From Acidimicrobiales bacterium (GTDB lineage Bacteria > Actinomycetota > Acidimicrobiia > Acidimicrobiales > Bin134), in the NCBI GenBank assembly GCA_965200775.1, contig OZ241383.1, positions 132,280-196,279 on the forward strand: a stretch of DNA of 64,000 nt, given 5' to 3'. The notes under the pieces were generated by a model. It searched no databases. It was given only the letters and a program-made list of their open reading frames with translations, and had not been told where the DNA came from. This document shows positions 6,024 to 60,362 of this stretch, in pieces. Each line of letters opens with the position of its first letter. The first letter of the stretch is position 1. Both the position numbers and the translations under genes were made by a program.

Positions 6024-7681
6024 CGTTGTTCCATCCTCGCAGCCCCCGACCTCTTCCGTCGTCCATCTCGCTGGAGCGCTTCGCCCGGGAAGTTGATGGC
6101 GAGAGCAGCGTGCTGGAATTCAAGCGAGGCGATTCTCCCAAGCCAATCGCAGAAGCAGTCACGGCTTTCTCCAACACGAACGGAGGTGTGGTGCTTGTGG
6201 GAGTGGACGACGACGGGTCTGTCCGAGGGGTCAACGCAGGAGAGCAAAAGATCGCCCAGTTGTACAGCGGGATCCACAGCGCTCTGCATGACCACATCAG
6301 GCTGGAGATCCATGTTCTGGCGGTAGGCGACCGGGACCTGCTGGTGGTTGACGTTCCCCGGCGAAGCGATGGGGTCACCCAGATGGGAGACGGACGGGTG
6401 CTAGTCCGCAGGGGAGCGTCGAACCGGGTTCTGATGGGCGATGATTTGCTTTCGTTCGCGGTGAGCCGCACCAGGGCAGGGATTGAATCAGCCGCGACCG
6501 AGGCTAAGCCGGCTGACGCCGACGGCGACCTCTTGGAGCAACTGCGGGTGGCCTGGGATTGGAGGGTGGATGAGGTTGAGGATCGTCTCGTTGAGAACCA
6601 CTTCGCGTCACGCGATGGTGGGGATGTCCGGCTGACGGTCGCCGGGGCATTGTTTCTGTTGGCTGAACCTCAGGCGGTGCTGGGCAAGACCTACGTTGAG
6701 ATTCTGCGCTTCAGAGACCAGTCCGGGGAGTTTGATCAACGGCTGGAGGTAATGGGGGATTTGCCAACCCAGATCCAAGCCACGGTCTCGGTTCTCATGG
6801 GCATGGTCGGCTTTGACACTGCATTCGTGGGGTTGAGAAGAAGGGACCTTCCGCGGCTCCCTGAGCCGGTGGTTAGAGAAGCCCTGGCGAACGCGGTGGC
6901 CCACCGGTCTTACCGGACGACGGGGGCTCCGGTGCGAGTTGAGGTTCACGCTGGCCATGTCGATGTCATTTCTCCGGGGGGTTTCCCCGATCCGGTTACC
7001 CCCGAGAACATCCGAGGTCAGAGCGTGGCCCGCAACCGGAGCGTCATCGGCACGCTGCGACGAATGGAACTAGCCGAGGACGTGGGGAGAGGTGTGGACC
7101 GGATGCAGGACGCCATGGAGGCCAACCTGCTCCCGCCGCCCGAGTTTGTCGAGGTGGCCGACACCGTCCGGGTTCGATTGGCCATGGAGTCGGCGGCTAC
7201 CCCGGATGAACGGGCGTGGGTCCTGGAACTCAGCAGAACCCATGAGCTGGAGCCTGGTGACACCCGTCTATTGGTTGAAGCCTCAAGGCGCGGAGTTGTT
7301 GCCAACTCGGATGTCAGGAATCTGCTGGGGGTGGACGAGCAAGAGGCTAGGAGAATCTGTGAGCGGCTGAAAGCCGCTGAGCTGCTGGAGCAGAACGGCA
7401 ATCGCGGCGGAGCCCGTTATCGAGTTGCCCGAACCATCGGGGGAGGGCGTTGGCAGCCAGTGGCCGAAGAGGAGATCGACCGGCGGGTGTTGGCGCTCGC
7501 GCAAGCCAGTGACGAGCCCCTGACCAACGAGCTGGTGCGGAAAGGCACCGGGCTCGACCGGGTCGAGGCGCTTCAAGCGCTGAACCGGCTGGTGGAAGCC
7601 GGCCACCTGATCCGCGAGGGCGAACGGCGGGGCACCCGCTACGTGAAGGTGGCCCAGAAGAGCAAGCCCTCAGAGACCTGA
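6014..7681 (+). CDS. Schlafen/AlbA_2-domain ATP-binding protein with HATPase_c_4-like core and C-terminal winged-helix repeats (RecG-like putative DNA-binding regulator family)
   Basis: The N-terminus ESSVLEFKRGDSPKPIAEAVTAFSNTNGGVVLVGVDDDGSVRGV is the AlbA_2 signature. The central REALANAVAHRSYRTTGAPVRVEVHAGHVDVISPGGFP is HATPase_c_4-like. Two HTH-like C-terminal segments follow. Start chosen at ATG 6014, because the track ORF start 5852 overlaps hisS. Confidence 0.75.
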   Translation: MAYSLFHPRSPRPLPSSISLERFAREVDGESSVLEFKRGDSPKPIAEAVTAFSNTNGGVVLVGVDDDGSVRGVNAGEQKIAQLYSGIHSALHDHIRLEIHVLAVGDRDLLVVDVPRRSDGVTQMGDGRVLVRRGASNRVLMGDDLLSFAVSRTRAGIESAATEAKPADADGDLLEQLRVAWDWRVDEVEDRLVENHFASRDGGDVRLTVAGALFLLAEPQAVLGKTYVEILRFRDQSGEFDQRLEVMGDLPTQIQATVSVLMGMVGFDTAFVGLRRRDLPRLPEPVVREALANAVAHRSYRTTGAPVRVEVHAGHVDVISPGGFPDPVTPENIRGQSVARNRSVIGTLRRMELAEDVGRGVDRMQDAMEANLLPPPEFVEVADTVRVRLAMESAATPDERAWVLELSRTHELEPGDTRLLVEASRRGVVANSDVRNLLGVDEQEARRICERLKAAELLEQNGNRGGARYRVARTIGGGRWQPVAEEEIDRRVLALAQASDEPLTNELVRKGTGLDRVEALQALNRLVEAGHLIREGERRGTRYVKVAQKSKPSET

Positions 7682-7719
7682 CCCGCAAAGATCTCATAAC
7701 CGGGTTGACTTATGGCCAA

Positions 7720-7772
7720 GTTATGTCAAAATTCTTTTGTAGAGCTCGACAGTAAAAGAATCATGGCATAAC
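7720..7772. repeat. Palindromic element copy 2 (imperfect): GTTATGTCAAAATTCTTTT, 15-nt loop, AAAAGAATCATGGCATAAC
   Basis: Same layout and about 85-90% identity by eye to 5971-6023. It lies 39 nt after the AlbA_2-type gene stop. Its internal ATG is followed by GCA TAA, so there is no ORF. Confidence 0.85.
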
Positions 7773-7857
7773 TCCAAACGGCTGAGGCGCCCCGCCCACC
7801 ACGCCACACCCACTCAACCTCAGCCTAGGACGCGGTGGGCGGCGGGGGCGCCACTGT

Positions 7858-8061
7858 AACGCTCGCTCCATGAAGGCCCAGATGATGGGGGCCGACCGGT
7901 CGGGGTCCCGTCTGGCTCTGTTGATCGGCTCTGACGAGTTGGCCGTCGGCGTCGTCACCGTGCGCCCCCTGCGCGCCGCTGGCGACCAGACCACCCTCCC
8001 CCGAGTCACCGTCGCCACCGGGGTGGCCAAATGCCAAGAAGTAAACAACCGGCAACAGTAA
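7858..8061 (+). pseudogene. hisS: Detached second copy of the hisS 3' end (last ~67 codons plus stop)
   Basis: It translates to NARSMKAQMMGADRSGSRLALLIGSDELAVGVVTVRPLRAAGDQTTLPRVTVATGVAKCQEVNNRQQ*. This aligns without gaps to the hisS C-terminus (5704-5907), with 43 of 66 residues identical by manual alignment. There is no upstream hisS body. Confidence 0.85.
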
Positions 8062-8189
8062 AGAGTGCGATAGTTTAGACACCTCAGTTCGCTGTCATAT
8101 GGTTGGATCACGTTATACAACCTATTCGTTCTGAGAATCGTTGTTTGCTTAAGTTCGACACCCTGGAGCCGATTACTTGGCATTGATGC

Positions 8190-9713
8190 TCAGGCCATAC
8201 GTGCTTCTGATATCATTTTATCAACCACGGGAGTGTCCCAATCATCCCTGACTCTGGCTCCCATAGTTCGAGCGCCTGCTAAGGCATCTTTCGCTCTTAT
8301 TTCGTTAGACATCCATTTGGTCTTTTTGTTCTCTTTGTGAAGTCCCGACATTGTCAAACTATTGCTCTTCCGGCTGTTACACGGCCCACAGATTAGCACT
8401 CGATTAGTGATAAAATTTTCTCCTGCGTCTGACCGTGGCTGTATGTGATCGAGTTCCGTAAATTCGATTTCAAGTTGTCGTCCGCAACCAACGCACACAA
8501 CTTTGTCATCAGGGTTATCAGAAATAATTTGTACTTGAGCTAAGATGTTCTTGATAACCTTATTGGGTAGCTGCTGCCAGGGATCAGAAGCTCTTTGCGT
8601 GCGGATTTTCAATATTGGCACGGTTGATTCATTCTCATCAGTTCGTTCGGGGATTTCTGTGGTGTAATGTACATCCCCAAATGTAATCAATCTGCTTGGA
8701 TTTGCTTCGCCTTCGGCAACGGCGAGACCTTCTTGTACCATTCTATCCAAAACGATCTGGTATGCGCCCTCCCATATATCTATACCGATCCACTGTCTTC
8801 CCAGCTTTTCAGCAGCAATTGGTGTGGTGGAACACCCACAGAATGGGTCGAGCACTATGTCTCCTTTGTTGCTAGATCCTTCGATTATTCTTTTATAAAG
8901 TTCTAACGGTTTGCGGGTAGGGTAGTTGTAATGTTCACTTTTGGGCCCGTGCATAGCGTCTGGTATATCAGACCATATGTTTCCCAAAAGCTTTTCCTTA
9001 TAGATAAACTTCTCATCGTGTTGATCATAGTATTTGATTCGTATATTTCCACTTTTGGTGTAGTGTATTCTACCATGTTCCTCTAACGTCTCCACACTCT
9101 TGTCAGTATAATCGTCTCTAGGGGCCGTGCGAAAATAACCTCTTTCATCCATCTGATATCCGTATTTTGACCGCTTCTTGATGGGAATACTAATGGTTTG
9201 GTACTGTTTATTCCAAGTATGCTCGCCTCCCTTAGTGTAATAGAATATAGTGTCGTGGTTGCGCGGATATTGCTTGGCGATTGCCTTTGCCCCTCTGGCA
9301 GTCTCACCGTACTGCCATATAATGTCATTCCGGTGATTCTTGTAGCCAAAAGCAGCATCTAGAATCAATTTAAGGTAATGGCAGGCTGTGATATCACAAT
9401 GCAAAAACATACTGCCACCATCTCGGAGGACTCTATACATCTCCATAAGCCTGACGGCCATGTAACAAATGTATGCTCCCATACCATCGCTGTGAGATTG
9501 CCTAGCTGCTTCGATGACCGCCCATATCTTTGGCCAGTCATCTTGAATCTGATCTACCCACTCATCGTGAACATCTATTTCCCACCGCCAACGATCCTTG
9601 AACCGCGCTCCCTTCGCAATCCTGTCAGGTGTGGCATGAAAGTCCTTACTCTTGTTGAATGGAGGATCAGTTGCGATTAGATGAACAGTCTCACTGTTGA
9701 TACCACGCAGCAC
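8190..9713 (-). CDS. Beta-class N6-adenine/N4-cytosine DNA methyltransferase fused to a C-terminal HNH nuclease domain. The annotated GTG start truncates the conserved N-terminus (see (GA)13 repeat)
   Basis: Motif IV DPPF (IATDPPFNKSKDF) lies near the N-terminus and motif I IVLDPFCGCSTTPIAAEKLGRQWIGIDI lies late, which is the PF01555-type order. The C-terminus CVGCGRQLEIEFTELDHIQPRSDAGENFITNRVLICGPCNSRKSN is an HNH motif. The gene is AT-rich relative to the genome. The frame stays open upstream of 9713 and encodes NFANRSLYHADNLD, the usual start of this MTase fold. Confidence 0.8.
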   Translation of the reverse strand: MLRGINSETVHLIATDPPFNKSKDFHATPDRIAKGARFKDRWRWEIDVHDEWVDQIQDDWPKIWAVIEAARQSHSDGMGAYICYMAVRLMEMYRVLRDGGSMFLHCDITACHYLKLILDAAFGYKNHRNDIIWQYGETARGAKAIAKQYPRNHDTIFYYTKGGEHTWNKQYQTISIPIKKRSKYGYQMDERGYFRTAPRDDYTDKSVETLEEHGRIHYTKSGNIRIKYYDQHDEKFIYKEKLLGNIWSDIPDAMHGPKSEHYNYPTRKPLELYKRIIEGSSNKGDIVLDPFCGCSTTPIAAEKLGRQWIGIDIWEGAYQIVLDRMVQEGLAVAEGEANPSRLITFGDVHYTTEIPERTDENESTVPILKIRTQRASDPWQQLPNKVIKNILAQVQIISDNPDDKVVCVGCGRQLEIEFTELDHIQPRSDAGENFITNRVLICGPCNSRKSNSLTMSGLHKENKKTKWMSNEIRAKDALAGARTMGARVRDDWDTPVVDKMISEARMA

Positions 9714-9788
9714 ATCAAGGTTGTCCGCATGGTATAGAGAGCGATTGGCGAAGTTTGGTTGTCCTTCTCCTGGTTGTCTCTCTTCTCT

Positions 9789-9814
9789 TCTCTCTCTCTC
9801 TCTCTCTCTCTCTC
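9789..9814 (-). repeat. Dinucleotide microsatellite (GA)13 on the coding (minus) strand, (TC)13 on plus
   Basis: Counted directly. It lies 3 nt downstream of ATG 9817 (minus strand) and upstream of the conserved methyltransferase N-terminus. Confidence 0.95.
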
Positions 9815-9836
9815 CATTATCCGCTCTCTTTTGCCC

Positions 9837-10397
9837 TCAAGGCTTTGCCGTCCGACGTTCACTTGCTAGGATGTCGTCCATCAATGGAAGGTGTTGCCAG
9901 GCATCAGGACAACCCGCAATCGAATGAGCCATTTTGTTGGCACTCACATTATTGATAACTATGCACATCTGATCTGATATGCAGAGCGAGCATTGACTGA
10001 GCCATCCCTCAAGATCTACGACTTGTCTATGCACATGCTCACACTGTGAGTAGCAGTAGGTACTGTATCTCTTGCGTCTGTTGGTCGCCAAAGATGAAAG
10101 TAGAGGGGTGCCCCGACTCATACTGCCAGCATTTCGGTTAGTAGAAGGACTAAGGCCATGGTGTCGACGGCCCAACTCACGGTATGGCCGGTTATAGCAG
10201 GGCGCGTCAGCAGATGTGCCTTTCTCAGGTTCGACGTAACCTGATGCCAAATAGGTCAATGTCGCTGCACAGATGTCGGGAACGGCTCTCGCAGAAATTC
10301 GGCAGACCCTGTGGCTGCTCACACTGGCTACTGTAACCCCTGTGACAAGCAAGCCAGCGGCTTTCGGCTGATCGTCGGCGTGGATGTGGCGATTCAA
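9837..10397 (-). CDS. Hypothetical Cys/His-rich protein (186 aa), possible zinc-ribbon protein, immediately upstream of and co-oriented with the MTase-HNH gene
   Basis: It is the only long ORF in this ~50% G+C stretch. It contains C-x3-C...C-x2-C (CYSQCEHVHRQVVDLEGWLSQCSLC). Its TGA (9837-9839) lies 20 nt before ATG 9817. No family was recognised. Confidence 0.35.
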   Translation of the reverse strand: MNRHIHADDQPKAAGLLVTGVTVASVSSHRVCRISARAVPDICAATLTYLASGYVEPEKGTSADAPCYNRPYRELGRRHHGLSPSTNRNAGSMSRGTPLLSSLATNRRKRYSTYCYSQCEHVHRQVVDLEGWLSQCSLCISDQMCIVINNVSANKMAHSIAGCPDAWQHLPLMDDILASERRTAKP

Positions 10398-10627
10398 TGC
10401 TCTAGTCTCATCGGTCGCTAGGTCTCAAGAACAGCAGATCCTCAGCATCCCACGTCTTGCGGGGTTGATGTGAAGGGTAGTCCGTAGGGCTTTGTGTCAT
10501 CCTTGGATCAAGCACCGGCTTCGAGTTCGGATCCCCCATTTTGGGCGGAACCCCTCTTCCCCTCCCCTCGCCTCCCGATTCTAGGGGCTGCTTCCCGGGG
10601 GTGGGGGTAGTGGCCTTTGGACTGTTC

Positions 10628-11235
10628 TGAGGTTCACCCCTTTTCGTGGAGGCATGCTCAATAGGGAGAGTTATGCCGCGACCATGAAGACAGTTGGACC
10701 GTGAGTTCCGTGACGGGGCTGTGCGGAATGTTGAGGAGACGGGTCAGTTGGTGGCTCAGGTGGCCCAGGACTTGGGTATCAACGAGGGCACGCTCGGGAA
10801 CTGGGTGTATCGACAGCGCGCTGAGCGGGCCGGCGGGCTGTCAGCCGATGAGCGGGCCGAGCTGGTGCGGCTACGTACCGAGAACGCGACGTTGCTGATG
10901 GAGCATGATGTGCTTAAACGATCTGTGGTTCTTTGGGGCAACGAGGTCACGCGGTGACGGCCGGGTTCATCGCCGCTGTCAATCCACCGGACGCACAGGC
11001 AACGCCCTGGACAACGCCTCAGCCAATTCGTTCTTTTCCGCCCTCACCCACGAACTCATCAACCGCCGCCAATGGACAACCCGAGACCAAGCCCGACAAA
11101 AAATCACCCTATGGATAACTGGCTGGTACAGCCACCAACGCCTCCACAGCACCCTCGGCATGATCCCTACCATAGAATACGAACAGATCCACCCCACCGA
11201 ACCCAACCCTCCACGAATGGGAGGGGGATTCGACA
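10628..11235 (+). mobile_element. IS3-family insertion sequence remnant with a large internal deletion
   Basis: Candidate terminal inverted repeats: TGAGGTTCACCCCTTTTCGTGGAGG (from 10628) and the reverse complement of ...CCTCCACGAATGGGAGGGGGATTCGACA (ending 11235). They share TG...CCCCT...TTCGTGGAGG. The remnant holds an OrfA-like HTH ORF followed directly by the extreme C-terminus of OrfB. Confidence 0.6.
10694..10957 (+). pseudogene. IS3-family transposase OrfA (HTH), 5' end frameshifted
   Basis: REFRDGAVRNVEETGQLVAQVAQDLGINEGTLGNWVYRQR plus a leucine-zipper-like tail (ELVRLRTENATLLMEHDVLKR). Upstream ATG CCG CGA CCA TGA suggests a broken original start (MPR...). Confidence 0.7.
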
Positions 11236-11249
11236 CGCCCGCCACGTAG
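10989..11249 (+). pseudogene. IS3-family transposase OrfB, C-terminal fragment only
   Basis: GNALDNASANSFFSALTHELINRRQWTTRDQARQKITLWITGWYSHQRLHSTLGMIPTIEYE matches the end of the rve/DDE domain (DNA..ESFF..LK.E......R.HS.LG). The catalytic core is missing. Confidence 0.65.
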
Positions 11250-11572
11250 GCCTCGGTGACCACCGCTCGCAGCGCCCGGTCGATGCGCCGTCGCGGTTCC
11301 AGAAGCGAAGGGAAGAAGTTTCCATTCCTCAGTTTGGGGATCTTCAGGTTCACGTCACCGGCCTGGGTGGCGAGGAGCCGTGGCCGGTGGCCGCTGCGCT
11401 CGGTCACACGAGCGTCGCTGTGCTCGTAGCGTCCTGCTCCAATGGCTTCGGCAGCTTCGGCCTTGATCAGCTCTTGGAGCACCAGTTCCACAGCCCCACG
11501 GAGCAAACCCGCCCCACCGCCGGCGCGGAACGTTTCCCACAGCCTCGCCGTGGTATTATTGGCCAAGGTCAT
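11231..11572 (-). pseudogene. IS256-family (Mutator-type) transposase, N-terminal ~114 codons, truncated by the IS3 remnant
   Basis: MTLANNTTARLWETFRAGGGAGLLRGAVELVLQELIKAEAAEAIGAGRYEHSDARVTERSGHRPRLLATQAGDVNLKIPKLRNGNFFPSLLEPRRRIDRALRAVVTEAYVAGVS is the conserved IS256 N-terminus. Similarity stops exactly at the IS3 right end (about 11231-11235). Confidence 0.75.
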
Positions 11573-11708
11573 CGGTGTGTCCTCCTCAATGAGTGAGTGG
11601 TGTTTCTCACCGAGGGTCACACCGCTGGCACCCCGCCCCCCACCATCACAAGGGACACCCCCCTTGAGGTTTACACAGGCTGCTTGCCTCTGGGATGGTT
11701 GGCTGGTA

Positions 11709-11900
11709 ATGATGAACCGATTCAAACGTAGCAGAAGGTACAGGAGCAGGAGGACATCGGCGCTAGTATTGGCACTTGTGATGGGAACCGTTGCTCTCTT
11801 GCCCCTCTCTGTTGAGGCACACGGCGAACACCCATTGAAGCATGAGTCGTCTGATCGTTGTAGCAATTCTCCTGACTTATGTTTTGGTCATGCTTGCTAG
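11709..11900 (+). CDS. Candidate small secreted Cys/His-rich peptide (63 aa)
   Basis: MMNRFKRSRRYRSRRTSALVLALVMGTVALLPLSVEA|HGEHPLKHESSDRCSNSPDLCFGHAC. It has a basic n-region, a hydrophobic core and a VEA-H cleavage-like site, with a 26-aa mature part carrying 3 Cys and 4 His. The track ORF 11442..11900 extends it upstream through IS256-related sequence. No homolog was recognised. Confidence 0.25.
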   Translation: MMNRFKRSRRYRSRRTSALVLALVMGTVALLPLSVEAHGEHPLKHESSDRCSNSPDLCFGHAC

Positions 11901-12419
11901 CATCACGATGCTTGTCTGAGGTACTGGGCACCCTTGGGAATGAAGGCAGATGTCGAGTGTGATGACGAATGTTACATCGATATGGTGCGAACTTGTCGTG
12001 CCATATCGTCCGGACTATCGAAATAGATTAGGTGGTATATTGACTTGGAGTTCATCGGTAGGCTGGCGATATTATATCGCCTTGACGGCGGATTAGGGGT
12101 TCCAAGAACTGTTCCTTGGGACGAGATATGTCCTGAATATAGATTGTGTGGAACTCTACACCCTTTTTCATGGTTGTTTTGTGATGCAATTATCCGATCT
12201 AGGCTTCATATTGCTGTGACATAACCATATGAATATCTGTTAACCCATGTGTGGATTCTGCGATTGACAGGTCTGCCGATTAGGCATTCTAGATCAGGCC
12301 AAACGCCTTTATGTCAGGATACGTGGAAACGTACAATAATCTACTTTGCCGCCTAATTCTTGCTAAGTGTTGAAGCAAAATTGAGAATTTGATCGGAGGC
12401 ATACTGCAAGATATCGTAA

Positions 12420-12896
12420 TCACATATTTGAAGCGACTAGAACAAGGAGTCCTGCAATTGTCACCGTGATACCAACTACCATCAATAGAATAGCCCACTT
12501 CAGTTTGTCAGTCCTTCTCTTATTGGTTGTCCTTAAACCTTCAAGGATGCGTATCGAACTCTCGATTGAACTACTGAGAATGCTACCTTGCCCGTGTTCT
12601 GACCACCAGATCAACCATTTGGTGTTTATTCTGGGATAAGACACCGCTGCGCCAACTAGAATGCCAAAAGTCCCCGAGAGGGCTAGTGCCACAAGTCCGA
12701 CAGACGATAGAACAAATGATTCAAGAGTTACTTGGTCGGCAAGCAATCCCAGCGCAGTGGCAACTAGTGAGGCAACAGTAAGTGAGAAACGGGCAACTGT
12801 TGCTCCTCTACTGTCCAATGAGAGTTGCTGTTGCTCCTCCCAGTTCTGCTCCGTCTTGATTAGTGCTATGAGGTCCTGCGTGTCGTCATCCACCAC
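12420..12896 (-). CDS. Small integral membrane protein (158 aa, three predicted TM helices), unknown function
   Basis: GTG start. The product has a polar N-terminus (DDDTQDLIALIKTEQNWEEQQQ), a TM hairpin (FSLTVASLVATALGLLADQV / FVLSSVGLVALALSGTFGILVGAAV), a ~45-aa loop and a C-terminal TM (WAILLMVVGITVTIAGLLVLVA). The gene is AT-rich. Confidence 0.6.
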   Translation of the reverse strand: MVDDDTQDLIALIKTEQNWEEQQQLSLDSRGATVARFSLTVASLVATALGLLADQVTLESFVLSSVGLVALALSGTFGILVGAAVSYPRINTKWLIWWSEHGQGSILSSSIESSIRILEGLRTTNKRRTDKLKWAILLMVVGITVTIAGLLVLVASNM

Positions 12897-12996
12897 GCTC
12901 TACCCACTCGATTTTATCCGGCTCGGGTGGGGGCTCTGAAGGAGGTGAGGAATCGCTAGTTTGCGTTGGCTGTTCGTCTGGTGGGCCAAGGCTCAT
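12886..12996 (-). CDS. Possible upstream mini-ORF (36 aa, Pro/Ser/Glu-rich) overlapping the start of the 3-TM gene by 11 nt
   Basis: ATG 12996 ... TGA 12886-12888 encodes MSLGPPDEQPTQTSDSSPPSEPPPEPDKIEWVERGG. It lies between the promoter-like site and the TM gene and could simply be 5' UTR. Confidence 0.2.
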   Translation of the reverse strand: MSLGPPDEQPTQTSDSSPPSEPPPEPDKIEWVERGG

Positions 12997-13038
12997 ATAT
13001 TCCCTGCCAGTGGGTAGTGATTCGGAAAATGCTTGGCT

Positions 13039-13067
13039 ATGATACTTCAGCTTTAGTGCCTTGTCAA
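13039..13067 (-). promoter_or_regulatory. Near-consensus sigma70-type promoter: TTGACA, 17 nt spacer, TATCAT
   Basis: On the minus strand the -35 TTGACA is at 13067-13062 and the -10 TATCAT at 13044-13039, with an exactly 17-nt spacer. It is oriented toward the mini-ORF/3-TM gene. Confidence 0.5.
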
Positions 13068-13121
13068 CAGGGAAAGGGTCGCGCGCCGAATTCTGACGAT
13101 GCTTCGCTGGGGGAGTTCCTG

Positions 13122-14135
13122 TCAGTCCAACGAGATGAGGCGGGCTAGTGGTTCGGGGTCCTGTTTGTTGTCGTAGCGGACGTAGCCTGAGTTTCTGCGT
13201 TCGACGATGCCCCTGAGTTCCTCGTCGAGGTCGTCGGTGTTGAGCCCGCGTTCCCGTGCGCGTCGAAGCACGCGGTGTGATACTGCGATGGCGGTGTCCA
13301 GGTAGTCGTACAGGTGCTCGTCGGCTTCGGCGTGTATGACGTCGAGGTCGTCGGGGTAGGTCGCTTCTGTCCGCCACTTGCCGATCTGCTTCGGCGTGAG
13401 TTGGTGGCTGCCAACCAGCTTCCTCAGTTCGGCGCGGGCGGGTTCGTCGGGTATCTGGGTGAGTCCGTCTTTGATACTGTGGCTGGCGTCTCGTACTTTG
13501 TCCGGGTGCAGGTCGTGCATGATCGCCGTGGCCTTGAGGCAGACTTCAACAACCATCGACGAATCAGCGCACACGCCCATAATCCTGTTGCCTCTTTTGA
13601 TCTCGGGACGGCTTGAAGACGCGCCCTTGCGTGGTTGCTCCGACAGCGGTGGCACCATGCGGGCCGAGAGGTTGATCAGGGCAATGTCCACTTTGGTTTT
13701 GAGATATTTTTGGGTTTCTTCTTTTTCGGTCATGGGCCTCACGCAGGTTTTGTTCCAGTTGGCCTTGTCGCGGGGCGCGCGCCCGCACAGCAAAACGGTG
13801 TCTGTGCTGATCTGGTGTTCGAAGGTGTTGGTCACGGCCCGACGGCTTTCCCATTCGGGCAGGTCAGAGACGTAGAGCTGCACGTGGAACGGGACCACCT
13901 CGCGGGTGGCCTGCGTTAGCCGGATCTCGATGTTGCGTCGTTCGTCGTAGTCGATGTCGGTGAACACCACGTACAAGTCAATGTCCGAGCGGGCAGTGGC
14001 ATCGCCGCGGGCCACCGAACCGTACACATACACCTCCGCGTCGCCCTGAGCGGCGGCCAGCACAGCCTCGGCCGCCCGCTGAGCGTCGGCCCGTGTGGGT
14101 GCTGTACGGGTATCTGCCAGAGCCACTACGGCCAC
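13122..14135 (-). CDS. Pol-beta-superfamily nucleotidyltransferase (MNT-like) fused to a helical, HEPN-like C-terminal domain
   Basis: The N-terminal YGSVARGDATARSDIDLYVVF is the GS-x-RG...D-x-D minimal nucleotidyltransferase motif. The C-terminal helical region carries SHSIKDGL...KWRTEATY, resembling the H...R-x4-Y pattern of NTase-associated HEPN domains (inference). The gene is high in G+C, unlike the block downstream of it. Confidence 0.65.
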   Translation of the reverse strand: MAVVALADTRTAPTRADAQRAAEAVLAAAQGDAEVYVYGSVARGDATARSDIDLYVVFTDIDYDERRNIEIRLTQATREVVPFHVQLYVSDLPEWESRRAVTNTFEHQISTDTVLLCGRAPRDKANWNKTCVRPMTEKEETQKYLKTKVDIALINLSARMVPPLSEQPRKGASSSRPEIKRGNRIMGVCADSSMVVEVCLKATAIMHDLHPDKVRDASHSIKDGLTQIPDEPARAELRKLVGSHQLTPKQIGKWRTEATYPDDLDVIHAEADEHLYDYLDTAIAVSHRVLRRARERGLNTDDLDEELRGIVERRNSGYVRYDNKQDPEPLARLISLD

Positions 14136-50121: not shown

Positions 50122-53028
<2,907 letters not shown>

Positions 53029-53326: not shown

Positions 53327-53745
53327 GCCGCGTCTTCGTGGACACCAGTGCGTGGTACGCGCTGGCTGCACCCGACGACATCTCCCATGATCTCGCCGTG
53401 CGTTTGCTAGGTGAGCACCAGGGACGGTTGGCCACCACCGACCACGTTCTCGTGGAGACCTGGGCGGTTGCCCGCAACCGGCGAAATCGCGCCGCCGCCG
53501 ACAAGCTCGTGGCCACCATCGTTGACCGCAGCGTCGCCGAAGTCCTCACCGCAACCCCCCAGGACATCGTGACCGCCCTGAGCATCGCAGAGACATTCGC
53601 CGACCAGGACTTCTCGATGATCGACCGCACAAGCTGGGCCGTCATGGAGCGCTGTGGCATCACCGAGGCTGTGGCCTTCGACATCGACTTCGCCGTTTAC
53701 CGCTACGGCCCACACTTCCAGCAAGCCTTCACAATCCACCGCTAG
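53323..53745 (+). CDS. vapC: PIN-domain ribonuclease toxin VapC
   Basis: 140 aa with VFVDTSAWYAL (first acidic residue), HVLVETW, and FSMIDRTSWAVM...AFDIDF. Confidence 0.85.
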   Translation: MSRVFVDTSAWYALAAPDDISHDLAVRLLGEHQGRLATTDHVLVETWAVARNRRNRAAADKLVATIVDRSVAEVLTATPQDIVTALSIAETFADQDFSMIDRTSWAVMERCGITEAVAFDIDFAVYRYGPHFQQAFTIHR

Positions 53746-53764
53746 GCGCACCTGACGTGCGGGG

Positions 53765-55068
53765 TTAGTTGTTGAGGGTGAAGGTGAACTCGTCGGCGGC
53801 TGGTGATGCCCTGCTTCCGGCCGGCGAGGGTCCGTGTCCGGCAGGCGATGCTCCTTGGCTCCTTCGGGGTGGTTCCAGTTGGTAGGTGCTGTTGGGGTGT
53901 TGGGTGGTGGTGTGGTTGTGTTTGTGGGTTTTGTTGTGGCAGGTGGGGCACAGGAGTGCGAGGTTTGTGATGTCGGTGGGTTCGCTGTGTTCTCACTATT
54001 GGTTGTGGTGGGTGTGGCAGGTGGTGGCTTTGTGTCCGCAGCCGGTGCAGTGTTTGTCTTGGGCGTATAAGGCGAGTTTTTGGGCTTGGGTGGCTGTTCT
54101 TTGTTTGGTGCTGAGGTAGAGGGGTTGGTCGTCGGTGTCGAAGATGGTGGGTAGCGCTGCGGCGTCACTGGCGATGCGCTGCAGGGTGTTGGTGTCGATG
54201 GGGGTGCCGTCGATCAGTCCTGCGTTTGGGGTCGGTTGGTGATGGCGTCGTAGTGGGCGGTGACGATCAGCGTGGTCGCCTGCGCTACGGGCTCGCTGCT
54301 GGCAGGTTCAGACTTTCCGGGTTTGGCGGGTTTTTGGGTGATCAACGTTACGAGGGCGTCGGCGGTGCGTTGGTGGTGGGTGCGGTCGTTTCTGGTTTTG
54401 GTGTCTTCTCGGAACATGCGATCGCCCAAGTCGTCGAGGGCGGTTTTGACTCGCTCCCCGGCGACACGGTCCAGCTCCGCGTGCAGCACGATCATGTCGT
54501 TGTCGCCGTCGAGCACTGATGCCCGGCGACGCCGGCGTTGTTGTTCGTGGCGGCTGAGACCATCAGCTGTGGCTCGTTGTTCTTCGAGGCGGGCGACGGT
54601 TTTTTTGAACAGGTCCAAGTCCTCTGTGATCGCCAAACCGATGAGCTCAAGTTCTTGGTCTTCGTCCATAGGGGCTCTTTGGTGGGATTCGCCGACTACT
54701 TGGGCGTGGTCGATGGTGATCCACCCGTCCTTTGAAGCCTCCAGCGTGTAGGGCAGGTCTTTGAGGATTGACGCGGTTTTGGCTTGACGGCGGGCCTTGT
54801 GACGGCCCACCCCAAACTGCCGGCACAACTCCACAACAGCGTCCTCGCCTTCGAGGTCACCGAACCGGCCCAACAACACAGTGAGCAAACCGTCGAGCTT
54901 TCGACGAGTCGAGTCGACTTGCAAGATCAGCTTCGCTACCTCTGCTGAATCCAACTCCATCGGATCAACATCAACCAGCCCGCCCAACCCGACATCCGCC
55001 GACGCAGCGCCAAGCTGCTCAGCAGTCTGAGGTTCGGTGTTGTCCCTGGTGAGGAGCCCTAAATCCAT
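53765..55068 (-). pseudogene. DUF222-HNH endonuclease (REP13E12-like) gene, inactivated
   Basis: ORF 54214-55068 is the DUF222 part. The HNH part continues in another frame (LIDGTPIDTNTLQRIASDAAALPTIFDTDDQPLYLS...DKHCTGCGHKATTCHTHHNQ) and is interrupted by the tandem in-frame stops TAG TGA (53993-53998) before ...NLALLCPTCHNKTH. The tail runs into the repeated DEFTFTLNN* segment. Confidence 0.75.
53766..53795. repeat. 30-nt perfect direct repeat TAGTTGTTGAGGGTGAAGGTGAACTCGTCG, copy 1
   Basis: Identical to 55266-55295. On the minus strand it encodes ...DEFTFTLNN plus a stop. Confidence 0.95.
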
Positions 55069-58178: not shown

Positions 58179-59183
58179 GTGGGGATTGCTGTCTCCACTC
58201 ACCAAGAGGTCCTCATGTCTTACCGTAACGCTGGACTCACGCCGTTCGCCCGTTGGTTGATTGTTGAACGCGTCCAAGCAGGCCAGCCCGTCGCTCATGT
58301 CGCGAAGGCAATGGGTGTTTCGCGCCAGTGCGCTCATCGCTGGATCAACCGATTCAACGAGGCCGGCGACGAAGGCCTCGAGGACCGTTCTTGGCGACCG
58401 CATCGGTGCCCCAACCAGACTCCCCCTGACGTCGAGGAGAAGGTGCTTGCCGCTCGACGCGAGCACCGGACCGGCCCCGATCAGCTCACCTACGAAGTCG
58501 GGGTGCCGGCGCGAACCATCAGCCGGATCTTGCGACGCAACGGAGTCCCACGGTTGCACGACTGCGACCCAATGACCGGCGAGGTGATCCGGGTCTCGAA
58601 GACAACCACGATCCGCTACGAACGCGACCGGCCCGGCGAACTCGTCCATATGGACCTCAAGAAGCTCGGCCGGATCCCACCCGGTGGTGGCTGGAAAGCC
58701 CACGGCCGACAGATGGGCTCAACAAGCGAACGCAAGAAGACCAAGATCGGCTACGACTACATCCACTCGATCGTCGATGACCACAGCCGCCTCGCGTACT
58801 CCGAGATCCACGACGACGAAAAGGGCGAGACCTGCGCCGAGTTCTTCGAGCGCGCCATCGAGTTCTTCGCCAGCCACGGCATCACGATCGAGCAGGTGAT
58901 GACCGACAACCACTGGAGCTACAAGCACACCACCCGCCTGGGCGAGCTCATCGACAGCATCGGCACAACCCACAAATTCATCCGACCCCACTGCCCCTGG
59001 CAGAACGGCAAAGTCGAACGCTTCAACCGCACCCTCCAAACCGAATGGGCCTACCGGCAAGTCATCGAAACCAACGACACCCGCTCAGCAGCCTTGCCAG
59101 ACTTCCTCCACCGCTACAACCACCACCGACCGCACCACACCCTCAGAGGACACCCACCCATCAGCCGACTGTCACCAACCTAA
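58179..59183 (+). CDS. IS481-family transposase (HTH plus rve DDE integrase core)
   Basis: N-terminal HTH (LTPFARWLIVERVQAGQPVAHVAKAMGVSRQCAHRWINRF). DDE core: LVHMDLKKLG, YIHSIVDDHSRLAY, and TDNHWSY...IRPHCPWQNGKVERFNRTL. The likely true start is ATG 58215 (MSYRNAG). Element ends are not confidently defined; there is only an 8-bp inverted match, GTTGGTGA at 58139 and TCACCAAC at 59172. Confidence 0.85.
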   Translation: MGIAVSTHQEVLMSYRNAGLTPFARWLIVERVQAGQPVAHVAKAMGVSRQCAHRWINRFNEAGDEGLEDRSWRPHRCPNQTPPDVEEKVLAARREHRTGPDQLTYEVGVPARTISRILRRNGVPRLHDCDPMTGEVIRVSKTTTIRYERDRPGELVHMDLKKLGRIPPGGGWKAHGRQMGSTSERKKTKIGYDYIHSIVDDHSRLAYSEIHDDEKGETCAEFFERAIEFFASHGITIEQVMTDNHWSYKHTTRLGELIDSIGTTHKFIRPHCPWQNGKVERFNRTLQTEWAYRQVIETNDTRSAALPDFLHRYNHHRPHHTLRGHPPISRLSPT

Positions 59184-59216: not shown

Positions 59217-59232
59217 CCCCCCCCCCCCCCCC
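59217..59232. repeat. Homopolymer C16 (G16 on the minus strand)
   Basis: Counted directly. It lies 34 nt after the transposase stop and about 190 nt upstream of the ADH gene. Confidence 0.9.
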
Positions 59233-59423: not shown

Positions 59424-60362
59424 ATGAGAGCAGTGCGCTGTGTGGATGGTCGGCCGTCGGTGGTGGAGGTAGCCGCTCCTCAGGGCGAGGGAGTGCGGAT
59501 CAAAACCGCCTCGGCCGGGGTGTGCGGCTCCGACCTTCACATGCTGGAACTCGGGATGCTGAACACCTACACCGTGGGCCACGAGTTCGCCGGTTGGCTT
59601 GACGACGGCCGCCCGGTAGCAGTGGAACCCATCAGAGGCTGCGGCACCTGCGAGCTGTGCCGAGCCGGCGACTACAACCGCTGTCCGGGAACCCTGGAAC
59701 AAGTGGCAGGCATCTCCCGCGACGGAGGCATGGCCGACGAGGTGCTGATATGGCCGGAGGCAGTCGTCCCGCTGCCTTCCGGGGTAAATCCCCGAGACGC
59801 CTGCCTGGTCGAGCCCCTCGGTATAGCAGTCCACGGCTTCCGCATGGTCGGTCTGAGGGGCGACATGAGGGTGGCCGTCATCGGTGGCGGCACCATAGGC
59901 CTGACCGCCCTAGCCGTGGCCCGCCTGGCGGGGTGCGAAACCGCCATCTTGGCCCGCCACCCCGCCCAGAATGAGGCCGCAGAGCGCCTCGGGGCTGTCA
60001 CGATTACCGAGCAGCCCTACGACATTGTGGTGGAGGCCGCCGGCTCCACCTCGGCCCTGGCCGACGCCGCCAAAAGGTGCCGACCCGGAGGCAAGATCGT
60101 GGTACTCGGCACCTACTGGGAGGGAATGGAGCTACCCGGTATGGATCTAAGCATGAAGGAGATCACCGTGGTGCCGTCCTCCATGTATGGGCGATTCGGC
60201 CCGACCCGGGACCTCGATGTTGCTGCTGCTGCGCTCGCCCAACTTCCCGAACTACCCGAAGCGGTCATCACCCACCGTTTTCCGCTCGACGCCGCCGCCG
60301 AAGCTTTTGCCACTGCGGCCAACCGCTCGGCAGGCGCCATCAAGGTCGTCCTGGAGCCCTGA
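59424..60362 (+). CDS. Zinc-dependent alcohol dehydrogenase (MDR family, threonine/sorbitol dehydrogenase-like)
   Basis: GVCGSDLH, GHEFAG, the structural Zn cluster CGTCELCRAGDYNRC, and VAVIGGGTIGL. Confidence 0.85.
   Translation: MRAVRCVDGRPSVVEVAAPQGEGVRIKTASAGVCGSDLHMLELGMLNTYTVGHEFAGWLDDGRPVAVEPIRGCGTCELCRAGDYNRCPGTLEQVAGISRDGGMADEVLIWPEAVVPLPSGVNPRDACLVEPLGIAVHGFRMVGLRGDMRVAVIGGGTIGLTALAVARLAGCETAILARHPAQNEAAERLGAVTITEQPYDIVVEAAGSTSALADAAKRCRPGGKIVVLGTYWEGMELPGMDLSMKEITVVPSSMYGRFGPTRDLDVAAAALAQLPELPEAVITHRFPLDAAAEAFATAANRSAGAIKVVLEP

Follow-up and report, generated by a model that had tools for sequence, protein, structure and literature searches.

Switching of DNA methyltransferases by simple sequence repeats (SSRs) is known mostly from small-genome, host-adapted pathogens. 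Here we describe a locus in a 64-kb stretch of DNA (64,000 nucleotides of contig OZ241383.1 of an Acidimicrobiales bacterium; hereinafter the window) in which the same device appears to sit on a solitary beta-class methylase fused to an HNH nuclease domain, which would be toggled as one unit, the hosts being uncultivated high-G+C Acidimicrobiia and, at homologous loci, also Dehalococcoidia. We regard it as likely that this locus is a slipped-strand contingency (phase-variable) methyltransferase–HNH gene whose window allele is OFF; with 13 GA units, this allele is one unit longer than an ON length.

The closest described counterparts are the Type III mod genes of Mycoplasma. The methyltransferase M.MmyCI of M. 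mycoides subsp. capri is OFF with (AG)12 and ON with (AG)10, and the mod (AG)n tract is conserved among Mycoplasma homologs at varying lengths, with many of these being frameshifted (PMC3498834); a survey of Type III mod genes likewise lists GA[n] tracts in those of Mycoplasma (PMC5909438). As in these systems, the window gene codes for a PF01555-type methyltransferase with an AG/GA tract in the coding sequence, and out-of-frame alleles are common, with a TAA just beyond the tract at three of the homologous loci listed below (L003, L009 and L005). In contrast, the Mycoplasma tract starts at nucleotide 320 of mod, whereas here it lies directly after the ATG; the former systems pair a Type III Mod with a neighbouring res gene in low-G+C pathogens, while the latter is a solitary protein with a fused HNH domain and no res, found in uncultivated high-G+C and probably sponge-associated hosts.

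Further parallels come from the ModA, ModB, ModD, ModH and ModM phasevarions of Haemophilus, Neisseria, Helicobacter and Moraxella, in which, as in the window gene, the methyltransferase coding sequence contains an SSR towards its 5′ end and has conserved ends flanking a variable central target-recognition region (PMC5909438). However, the repeats in those genes are mostly tetra- or pentanucleotides or poly-G, and an effect on a regulon has been demonstrated for them. A different architecture is seen in the Campylobacter jejuni Type IIG enzyme Cj0031, which combines a PD-(D/E)XK nuclease with a gamma-class methyltransferase and has a poly-G tract inside its gene. It resembles the window gene in uniting nuclease and methyltransferase in one polypeptide such that a single SSR would switch both (PMC4889913), but the window gene differs in having an HNH nuclease, a beta-class methyltransferase and a (GA)n tract at its extreme 5′ end.

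The initial annotation of the window had suggested that such a feature was undescribed in high-G+C Actinomycetota. This was too strong: among the genes listed in the Type III mod survey of REBASE, which extends to "environmental" species and one Corynebacterium, is the SSR-bearing mod M.Cca44701ORF9495P of Corynebacterium casei (PMC5909438), a putative phase-variable methyltransferase from the same phylum. That gene is a Type III mod that is only listed in the survey, and it is set apart from the window gene by its description, not by sequence. Full-text literature searches returned no account of this methylase–HNH family and none of switching by SSRs in symbionts of sponges. The mechanism is already known; the novelty lies in the architecture of the enzyme, in the group of hosts, in the distribution over more than one phylum and in the convergent recruitment of two types of repeat.

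Repeat tract, reading frames and encoded enzyme

The features of the locus, all on the minus strand where a strand applies, are as follows:

9815..9817, minus: ATG start codon for in-frame tract lengths (sequence; an ATG lies 3–18 nucleotides before the tract in homologous loci)
9789..9814, minus: perfect (GA)13 SSR, the proposed switch (sequence; shuffles)
9777..9788, minus: imperfect purine extension AGAGAAGAGAGA (sequence; the sister allele L010 has AAGAGA here)
9714..9758, minus: codons upstream of the annotated GTG for PNFANRSLYHADNLD, a conserved strand and helix at the N-terminus (homologs, model)
9677..9817, minus: 46-residue product in the present OFF state (translation)
8190..9836, minus: whole open frame of the methyltransferase–HNH gene, 548 codons and then the stop at 8190–8192
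8751..9686, minus: PF01555 (beta-class N6A/N4C) DNA methyltransferase domain (Pfam, PADLOC, PDB, fold matches, alignment)
8361..8495, minus: predicted HNH nuclease domain (CxxC...DH...N...CxxCN), kept in all homologs (Pfam, NCBIfam, alignment)
8106..10256, minus: low-G+C cassette (46%), 98.5% identical to contig L010, with unrelated flanks

The minus strand reads ...gggcaaaagagagcggataATG(GA)13AGAGAAGAGAGACAACCAGGAGAAGGACAACCAAACTTCGCC..., with the ATG at 9817–9815 followed by the perfect tract at 9814–9789 and the purine run at 9788–9777. The methyltransferase frame is open from 9836, just past an in-frame TGA (9839–9837), to its stop at 8190–8192, and since its first ATG, GTG or TTG is the GTG at 9713, the gene is listed as a 507-residue open reading frame (ORF). 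The distance from 9817 to 9713 is 104, or 2 mod 3, and therefore the ATG is out of frame with the methyltransferase; with the present 13 units it gives the 46-residue product ending at 9677. In simulated tracts of 9, 12 and 15 units the ATG leads into products of 539, 541 and 543 residues, respectively, whereas 10, 11, 13, 14, 16 or 17 units yield only 32–48 residues; thus, gain or loss of units toggles between a full-length and a truncated product. The tract itself creates no stop, as (GA)n reads (ER)n in every frame. The initial annotation had described this arrangement of ATG, tract and GTG and the frame open to 9836 correctly, and its estimate that the loss of one unit or the gain of two would give about 541 residues agrees with the simulated 541 (12 units) and 543 (15 units).

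A GA run of 26 nucleotides, allowing up to two mismatches, did not arise in any of 100 dinucleotide-preserving shuffles of the window, and (GA)13 is the sole dinucleotide tract of at least 5 units within the 64 kb. Lying at the start of an ORF, it exceeds the usual SSR threshold, which is at least 5 units for dinucleotides (PMC5909438). The sequence upstream of the ATG, aagagagcggata, is weakly Shine-Dalgarno-like. A promoter and terminator scan of 8000–10400 found 5 candidates as against 3.7 expected from shuffles, a number not above chance, and none on the minus strand upstream of the ATG. On the 3′ side, the 99 nucleotides after the tract (9690–9788, minus) fold unusually stably (−30.2 kcal/mol, z −3.5), with GAGAGA pairing with a downstream UCUCUC and a hairpin forming around GTG 9713; this stable fold is missing in four homologs (z −0.05, −1.3, −0.7 and +1.6).

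In the 548-residue translation, Pfam recognizes PF01555 (N6_N4_Mtase) at residues 51–362 (1e-39) and HNH at residues 448–492 (1e-9). The methyltransferase has its motif IV (DPPF) N-terminal to motif I (VLDPFCGCSTT), with the region between them being variable in the alignment, an order that together with the CcrM/M.MboIIA/M.RsrI fold places it among the beta-class N6A/N4C DNA methyltransferases. In beta-class enzymes, DPPF at motif IV favours N6-adenine over N4-cytosine, which suggests that the window enzyme is an N6-adenine methyltransferase. NCBIfam and PDB sequence searches match the N-terminal two thirds to CcrM-, MboIIA-, DpnA- and EcoP15I-Mod-like methylases and the C-terminus to the HNH region of Cas9/IscB. 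The AlphaFold model, built from 68 sequences, has a mean predicted local distance difference test (pLDDT) score of 86, and its best Foldseek matches are CcrM, EcoP15I Mod, M.MboIIA, M.BceJIV and M.RsrI, with E-values of 1e-15 to 1e-11 for CcrM, M.MboIIA, M.RsrI and EcoP15I Mod.

The C-terminal part displays an HNH (beta-beta-alpha-Me) motif with two CxxC pairs, CVGCGRQL...ELDHIQPRS...ITNRVLICGPCNSRK, from which nuclease activity is predicted. C432, C435, D447, H448, N462, C467, C470 and N471 are invariant across the 68 family sequences (residue numbers for invariant positions refer to the 532-residue translation of window positions 8190–9788). Across the family alignment the N-terminal catalytic part is conserved, the centre is variable, and the motif I part and the HNH domain are again conserved. 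The variable centre is presumably the target-recognition region, so that alleles would differ in predicted specificity; mod genes show the same pattern among their alleles. Identity as a Type III Mod subunit was considered and rejected, as there is no res partner and the PADLOC MTase_II models rank ahead of MTase_III; a res-like neighbour is lacking both in the window and at the homologous loci.

Gene start and tract in homologous loci

The position of the true start is decided by the homologs. About 100 of 120 begin with M-x-x-P-N-F/W-x-N-R-T-L-Y/F-H-G-D-N-L, around 24 residues before the site of GTG 9713. N12, R16, D22, N23 and L24 are invariant in the 68 sequences, and all of them precede V26, which is the GTG 9713 codon. 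The AlphaFold model places a strand (residues 17–20) and the first half of a helix (residues 23–29) upstream of V26 with pLDDT 91–96, and the same N-terminal stretch aligns with the N-terminus of TTHA0409 (PDB 2zie). Thus, homolog starts, five invariant residues and a modelled strand all bear out the proposal of the initial annotation that the gene begins upstream of GTG 9713, and the comparison of the extended N-terminus with homologs that it had suggested finds this stretch conserved and the homologs not starting at the position of the GTG. As the window has GAA where the homologs have their Met codon and offers no other in-frame start, the conserved N-terminus is translatable only from ATG 9817 through the tract.

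This bears directly on the alternative that translation begins at GTG 9713 or at some other internal codon after all, with the tract lying in a 5′ leader and without any frame-switching. Gene callers did choose such starts (P0001, P0065, P0074 and P0032), but an internal start would discard the five invariant residues and the core strand, and the codons upstream of it change synonymously (see below). Moreover, the methylase frame of L003 and L009 has a TAA that ends right before the codon overlapping the start of the tract, so that their conserved upstream codons are reachable only through the tract. We hold this alternative to be highly improbable. A practical corollary is that gene callers give such genes truncated starts, as in the annotations of P0001, P0032, P0065 and P0074.

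Homologs called with truncated starts (MNSETV...) were accordingly re-read at the DNA level. Nine further homologous loci have (GA)7–16 between an ATG and the conserved PNF/PNW motif, and include Acidimicrobiales, Candidatus Poriferisocius and Dehalococcoidia metagenome-assembled genomes (MAGs) as well as metagenome contigs; the (GA)n-bearing homologs share only 45–55% protein identity. Six of these loci, in five MAGs (L002, L003, L009, L004, L005 and L006), were recovered by a pattern scan for (GA)7 followed by the conserved N-terminal codons in one genome per GTDB species. Apart from L010, which is treated below, the SSR-bearing loci are:

L002, Dehalococcoidia MAG OZ220495.1: aaaggagg-N6-ATGACCA(GA)16, out of frame
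L003, Acidimicrobiales MAG OZ220474.1: ATGACGGGTAACC(GA)15, out of frame
L009, second copy in Acidimicrobiales MAG OZ220474.1: 9 units, out of frame
L001, metagenome contig: ATGAAGCATACAAAGAGC(GA)9, in frame
L004, Candidatus Poriferisocius OZ244918.1: 14 units, out of frame
L005, Acidimicrobiales OZ220491.1: 16 units, out of frame
L006, "bacterium CAR3_bin_7": 10 units, out of frame
L017, less than 45% identical to the other family members compared: acaggagg-N6-ATGGTCAAC(GA)14, in frame
L018: ATGA(C)9, one nucleotide too long (L018:1422–1440)
L020–L024: ATGAGCTA(C)9, one nucleotide too long (L020:766–785, same in L021–L024)

At these loci the ATG lies 3–18 nucleotides before the tract, and several have a clear Shine-Dalgarno sequence (aaaggagg at L002, gaggag at L006 and acaggagg at L017). 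Two further homolog lineages, L018 and L020–L024, carry C9 in place of GA right after the ATG, with the L020 allele having C9 in all five of its assemblies. The nearest protein relatives of the SSR-bearing genes have plain M-x-x-PNF starts; therefore, SSRs have been gained or lost repeatedly at one position. The initial annotation had advised looking for homologous loci with different repeat numbers, and these exist, at the same position and in both in-frame and out-of-frame states.

Two other homologs with truncated starts, L019 and L025, were considered as SSR carriers and dropped: L019 begins with an ordinary ATG in frame and has no SSR, and L025, whose start is ambiguous, likewise appears to have none. 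Viral contigs, scanned for the family both by pattern and by protein, gave no match, and there was no sign of phage carriage at close range. JGI metagenome contigs matched neither the family pattern nor the exact flank of the window tract, in a plasmid database only the methylase part had matches, about 35% identical and lacking the HNH fusion, and a protein search with an (ER)n leader joined to the conserved N-terminus returned only short N-terminal fragments, with no ER leaders and no further ON alleles.

An unrelated methyltransferase in the L005 contig also contains a GA tract. This PF13651 EcoRI-like gene (L005:6560–7632, minus) has an internal (GA)16 (7336–7367) that breaks it into two ORFs, and 15 or 18 units would restore a full ORF of 356 or 358 residues; it is followed by a GmrSD_N–HNH gene.

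Allele lengths, selection and the excess of one frame

Tract length varies among closely related alleles. The gene at L010, which comes from another sample, is 99% identical in protein to that of the window (501 of 507 residues), and the DNA is 98.5% identical over 2.15 kb (window 8106–10256) with unrelated flanks. The leaders are ATG(GA)7AAGAGAC at L010 and ATG(GA)13AGAGAAGAGAGAC in the window, the former being 18 nucleotides shorter, a difference that includes the imperfect purine stretch, of which L010 has only AAGAGA. Likewise, the CAR3_bin_7 allele (L006), found with an identical predicted protein in six assemblies, has 10 units in four of them and 11 in two.

Polymerases and assemblers err at repeats, and the L010 contig has, to go by its name, 3x coverage, both of which would fit a sequencing or assembly artefact at a dinucleotide repeat. 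Yet the same architecture is seen in apparently independent assemblies of different technologies (HiFi-, SPAdes-, MEGAHIT-style and Logan, judged by contig names alone), and the unit numbers are reproducible, 10 in four and 11 in two. As the tract recurs in assemblies from different apparent pipelines, we take it to be real, the chance of an artefact being negligible.

By sequence-level criteria, the locus qualifies as a phase-variable methyltransferase. We propose that translation from ATG 9817 would read through (GA)n as (ER)n to the conserved N-terminus, and that slipped-strand mispairing in replication would add or remove GA units, with unit numbers of 0 mod 3 (9, 12 or 15) giving the enzyme of 539–543 residues (ON) and other lengths stopping after 30–50 residues (OFF). 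Because both activities reside on one polypeptide behind the tract, methylation and cleavage by the predicted nuclease would be switched jointly, as happens in Type III systems and in Type IIG enzymes. Switching may be reversible and frequent within a population, and the enzyme is probably active, with the switch being potentially adaptive as a form of bet-hedging that would balance the defence or epigenetic state against cost or self-restriction. If the HNH domain restricts, turning ON in an unmethylated genome might be costly, which would favour mostly-OFF populations with rare ON cells. Actinobacterial NucS-type mismatch repair leaves indels uncorrected (PMC7015689), and such tracts should therefore be unstable in these hosts. 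Taken together, the kinds of hosts, the apparently horizontal acquisition of the genes, the two repeat types at one position and the GA tract in an unrelated methylase suggest that populations of these bacteria may consist of cells in different restriction-modification or epigenetic states, with consequences for phage–host dynamics in their communities.

The candidate phase-variable methyltransferase of the initial annotation is thus supported by the tract lengths and states of the homologs and by the differences between near-identical alleles; the outcomes that it had named as telling against it, namely an invariant tract, homologs starting at the GTG and an artefact, were not found. Additional support comes from the second, unrelated methylase with an internal (GA)16 (PF13651 at L005). 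Several observations weigh against the proposed switch. We found no ON allele in the window's own lineage, its 13- and 7-unit alleles both being OFF and in the same frame; more generally, ON alleles are seen only in other lineages (L001 and L017), and the lineages with several alleles show only OFF states. Between the window and L010 genes there are 3 synonymous and 6 nonsynonymous changes, a number too small for constraint on this lineage to be seen. The copies at L004 and L005 are truncated 5′ remnants, and the protein collection holds more than 100 short N-terminal fragments of the family, so that decay is common. Lastly, 10 of 14 lineage-level observations share one OFF phase, that of the ON length plus one unit (hereinafter ON+1), which simple unbiased switching would not predict.

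Much of this could be accommodated if the gene were a decaying pseudogene, the tract being merely an error-prone sequence that inactivated a selfish, horizontally acquired gene rather than a maintained switch. The prevalence of OFF alleles, the 5′ remnants, the many short fragments and the window/L010 changes would all fit, as would the setting of the window cassette among IS3-type and Mutator transposase fragments. Nevertheless, the comparison of L002 and L003, both out of frame in their consensus, gives a ratio of nonsynonymous to synonymous substitution rates (dN/dS) of 0.13, and thus the downstream coding sequence is under purifying selection even between two OFF alleles. In the 19 codons from the tract to the internal start, there are 8 synonymous and 0 nonsynonymous changes in each of the L002/L003 and L002/L009 pairs. 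ORFs of 477–521 codons remain intact 3′ of the tract in the window, L010, L001, L002, L003 and L006. Further, the position of the tract is maintained in proteins that have diverged to 45–55% identity, a C9 tract of independent origin is found at that position, and in-frame alleles occur at L001 and L017. Decay without a maintained switch hence appears unlikely to us.

The skew in phase invites a different explanation. The ten ON+1 observations are the window, L010, L002, L003, L009, the L005 copy, the L005 EcoRI-like gene, the 10-unit L006 allele and the two C9 lineages; two lineages are ON (L001 and L017), and the remaining two observations, L004 and L006 with 11 units, fall one unit short of an ON length or exceed it by two. 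Among the OFF observations, 10 against 2 corresponds to a two-sided binomial p of about 0.04, though these observations are not independent. Under programmed recoding, ON+1 would be the working state, with either a one-unit loss by RNA polymerase or a 2-nucleotide slip of the ribosome on GAG/AGA furnishing steady low expression of a methylase–nuclease that may be toxic. The excess of ON+1 for GA and C9 tracts alike is as this would predict, and so is the retention of the phase in related pairs whose lengths differ by multiples of 3 nucleotides (18 between the window and L010, 12 between L003 and L009). Since a one-unit loss is a single event that rescues both tract types, the polymerase rather than the ribosome would be indicated.

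Against this, the same allele occurs with 10 and 11 units, in-frame alleles exist, and the RNA structure 3′ of the tract is not conserved in the homologs. The numbers are low and not independent, and the way in which some loci were found biases them towards OFF, as look-ups via truncated proteins could find OFF alleles only. RNA polymerase elongation slippage is, to our knowledge, established for A/T runs and not for GA dinucleotides. In M. smegmatis, insertions outnumber deletions among indels by 2.17:1 (PMC7015689), and insertion-biased slippage combined with selection against ON could produce the same skew. We accordingly view RNA-level recoding as less likely than insertion-biased slippage as the reading of the skew, and programmed recoding as rather improbable overall. 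The broader conjecture, that ON+1 is a selected working state of a recoding device that spans phyla in apparent sponge symbionts and keeps a self-targeting methylase–nuclease barely expressed, seems to us doubtful. Slipped-strand switching of the methyltransferase–HNH gene remains the reading that we prefer.

Host, cassette and neighbouring genes

The best named matches of the window LigA are Candidatus Poriferisocius sp. (66%) and Acidimicrobiia MAGs, on account of which we assign the host to the Acidimicrobiia (Actinomycetota), in line with the actinobacterial host put forward in the initial annotation. To judge from MAG and contig names alone, the hosts are probably sponge-associated. The window gene has a G+C content of 45% as compared to 66.5% in the rest of the window, and homologs show comparable differences from their flanks (0.48 vs 0.65 at L002; 0.45 vs 0.645 at L003), which indicates a horizontally moving gene that carries its switch along. 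The 2.15-kb cassette showed no convincing terminal repeats.

Next to the gene in the window are a Schlafen/AlbA_2–HATPase gene, a small ORF of low G+C content for a membrane protein, and fragments of IS3-type and Mutator transposases. No partner gene is common to the loci compared, and some neighbours at homologous loci are other restriction-modification or defence genes (Eco57I-like, GmrSD, MvaI/BcnI and an EcoRI-like methylase). A search with Rfam found one tRNA in the window and nothing near the locus. The sequence adjoining the cassette (10694–11866 and 12000–13400) contains the transposase fragments, IS3-type (HTH_Tnp_1, rve_3) and Mutator-family, and a second low-G+C stretch (46%) that harbours a 158-residue ORF (12420–12896) with hydrophobic stretches and no Pfam match; together they look like a patchwork island.

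The sister allele on the L010 contig lies within a dense restriction-modification cluster (L010:2851–3752 and 6163–8933). Its members are an EcoRI-like methylase, an endonuclease of the MvaI/BcnI type accompanied by a fragment of a methylase and, beside an IS1595 transposase, a second methylase–HNH gene with an ordinary MAEPNW start. DUF222–HNH genes adjoin the methylase–HNH gene on two other contigs (L003:833–2107 and L011:3040–4449). The window itself has a 67%-identical stretch at 53922–54795, which runs across two ORFs (53407–54168 and 54214–55068) without a Pfam hit and is possibly a frameshifted copy.

Elsewhere in the window, a C16 homopolymer (59217–59232) is intergenic, just after an IS481-family transposase gene (58179–59183) and about 190 nucleotides upstream of a zinc-dependent dehydrogenase ORF (59424–60362). 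The LigA of the window (50122–52947, minus) is 941 residues long, of which about 365 residues, between the OB fold (ending at residue 409) and the HhH region (from residue 775), have no Pfam match. Its relatives fall into two size classes of about 680 and 990 residues, and one of them, P0212, carries an HNH domain, which hints at a mobile insertion.

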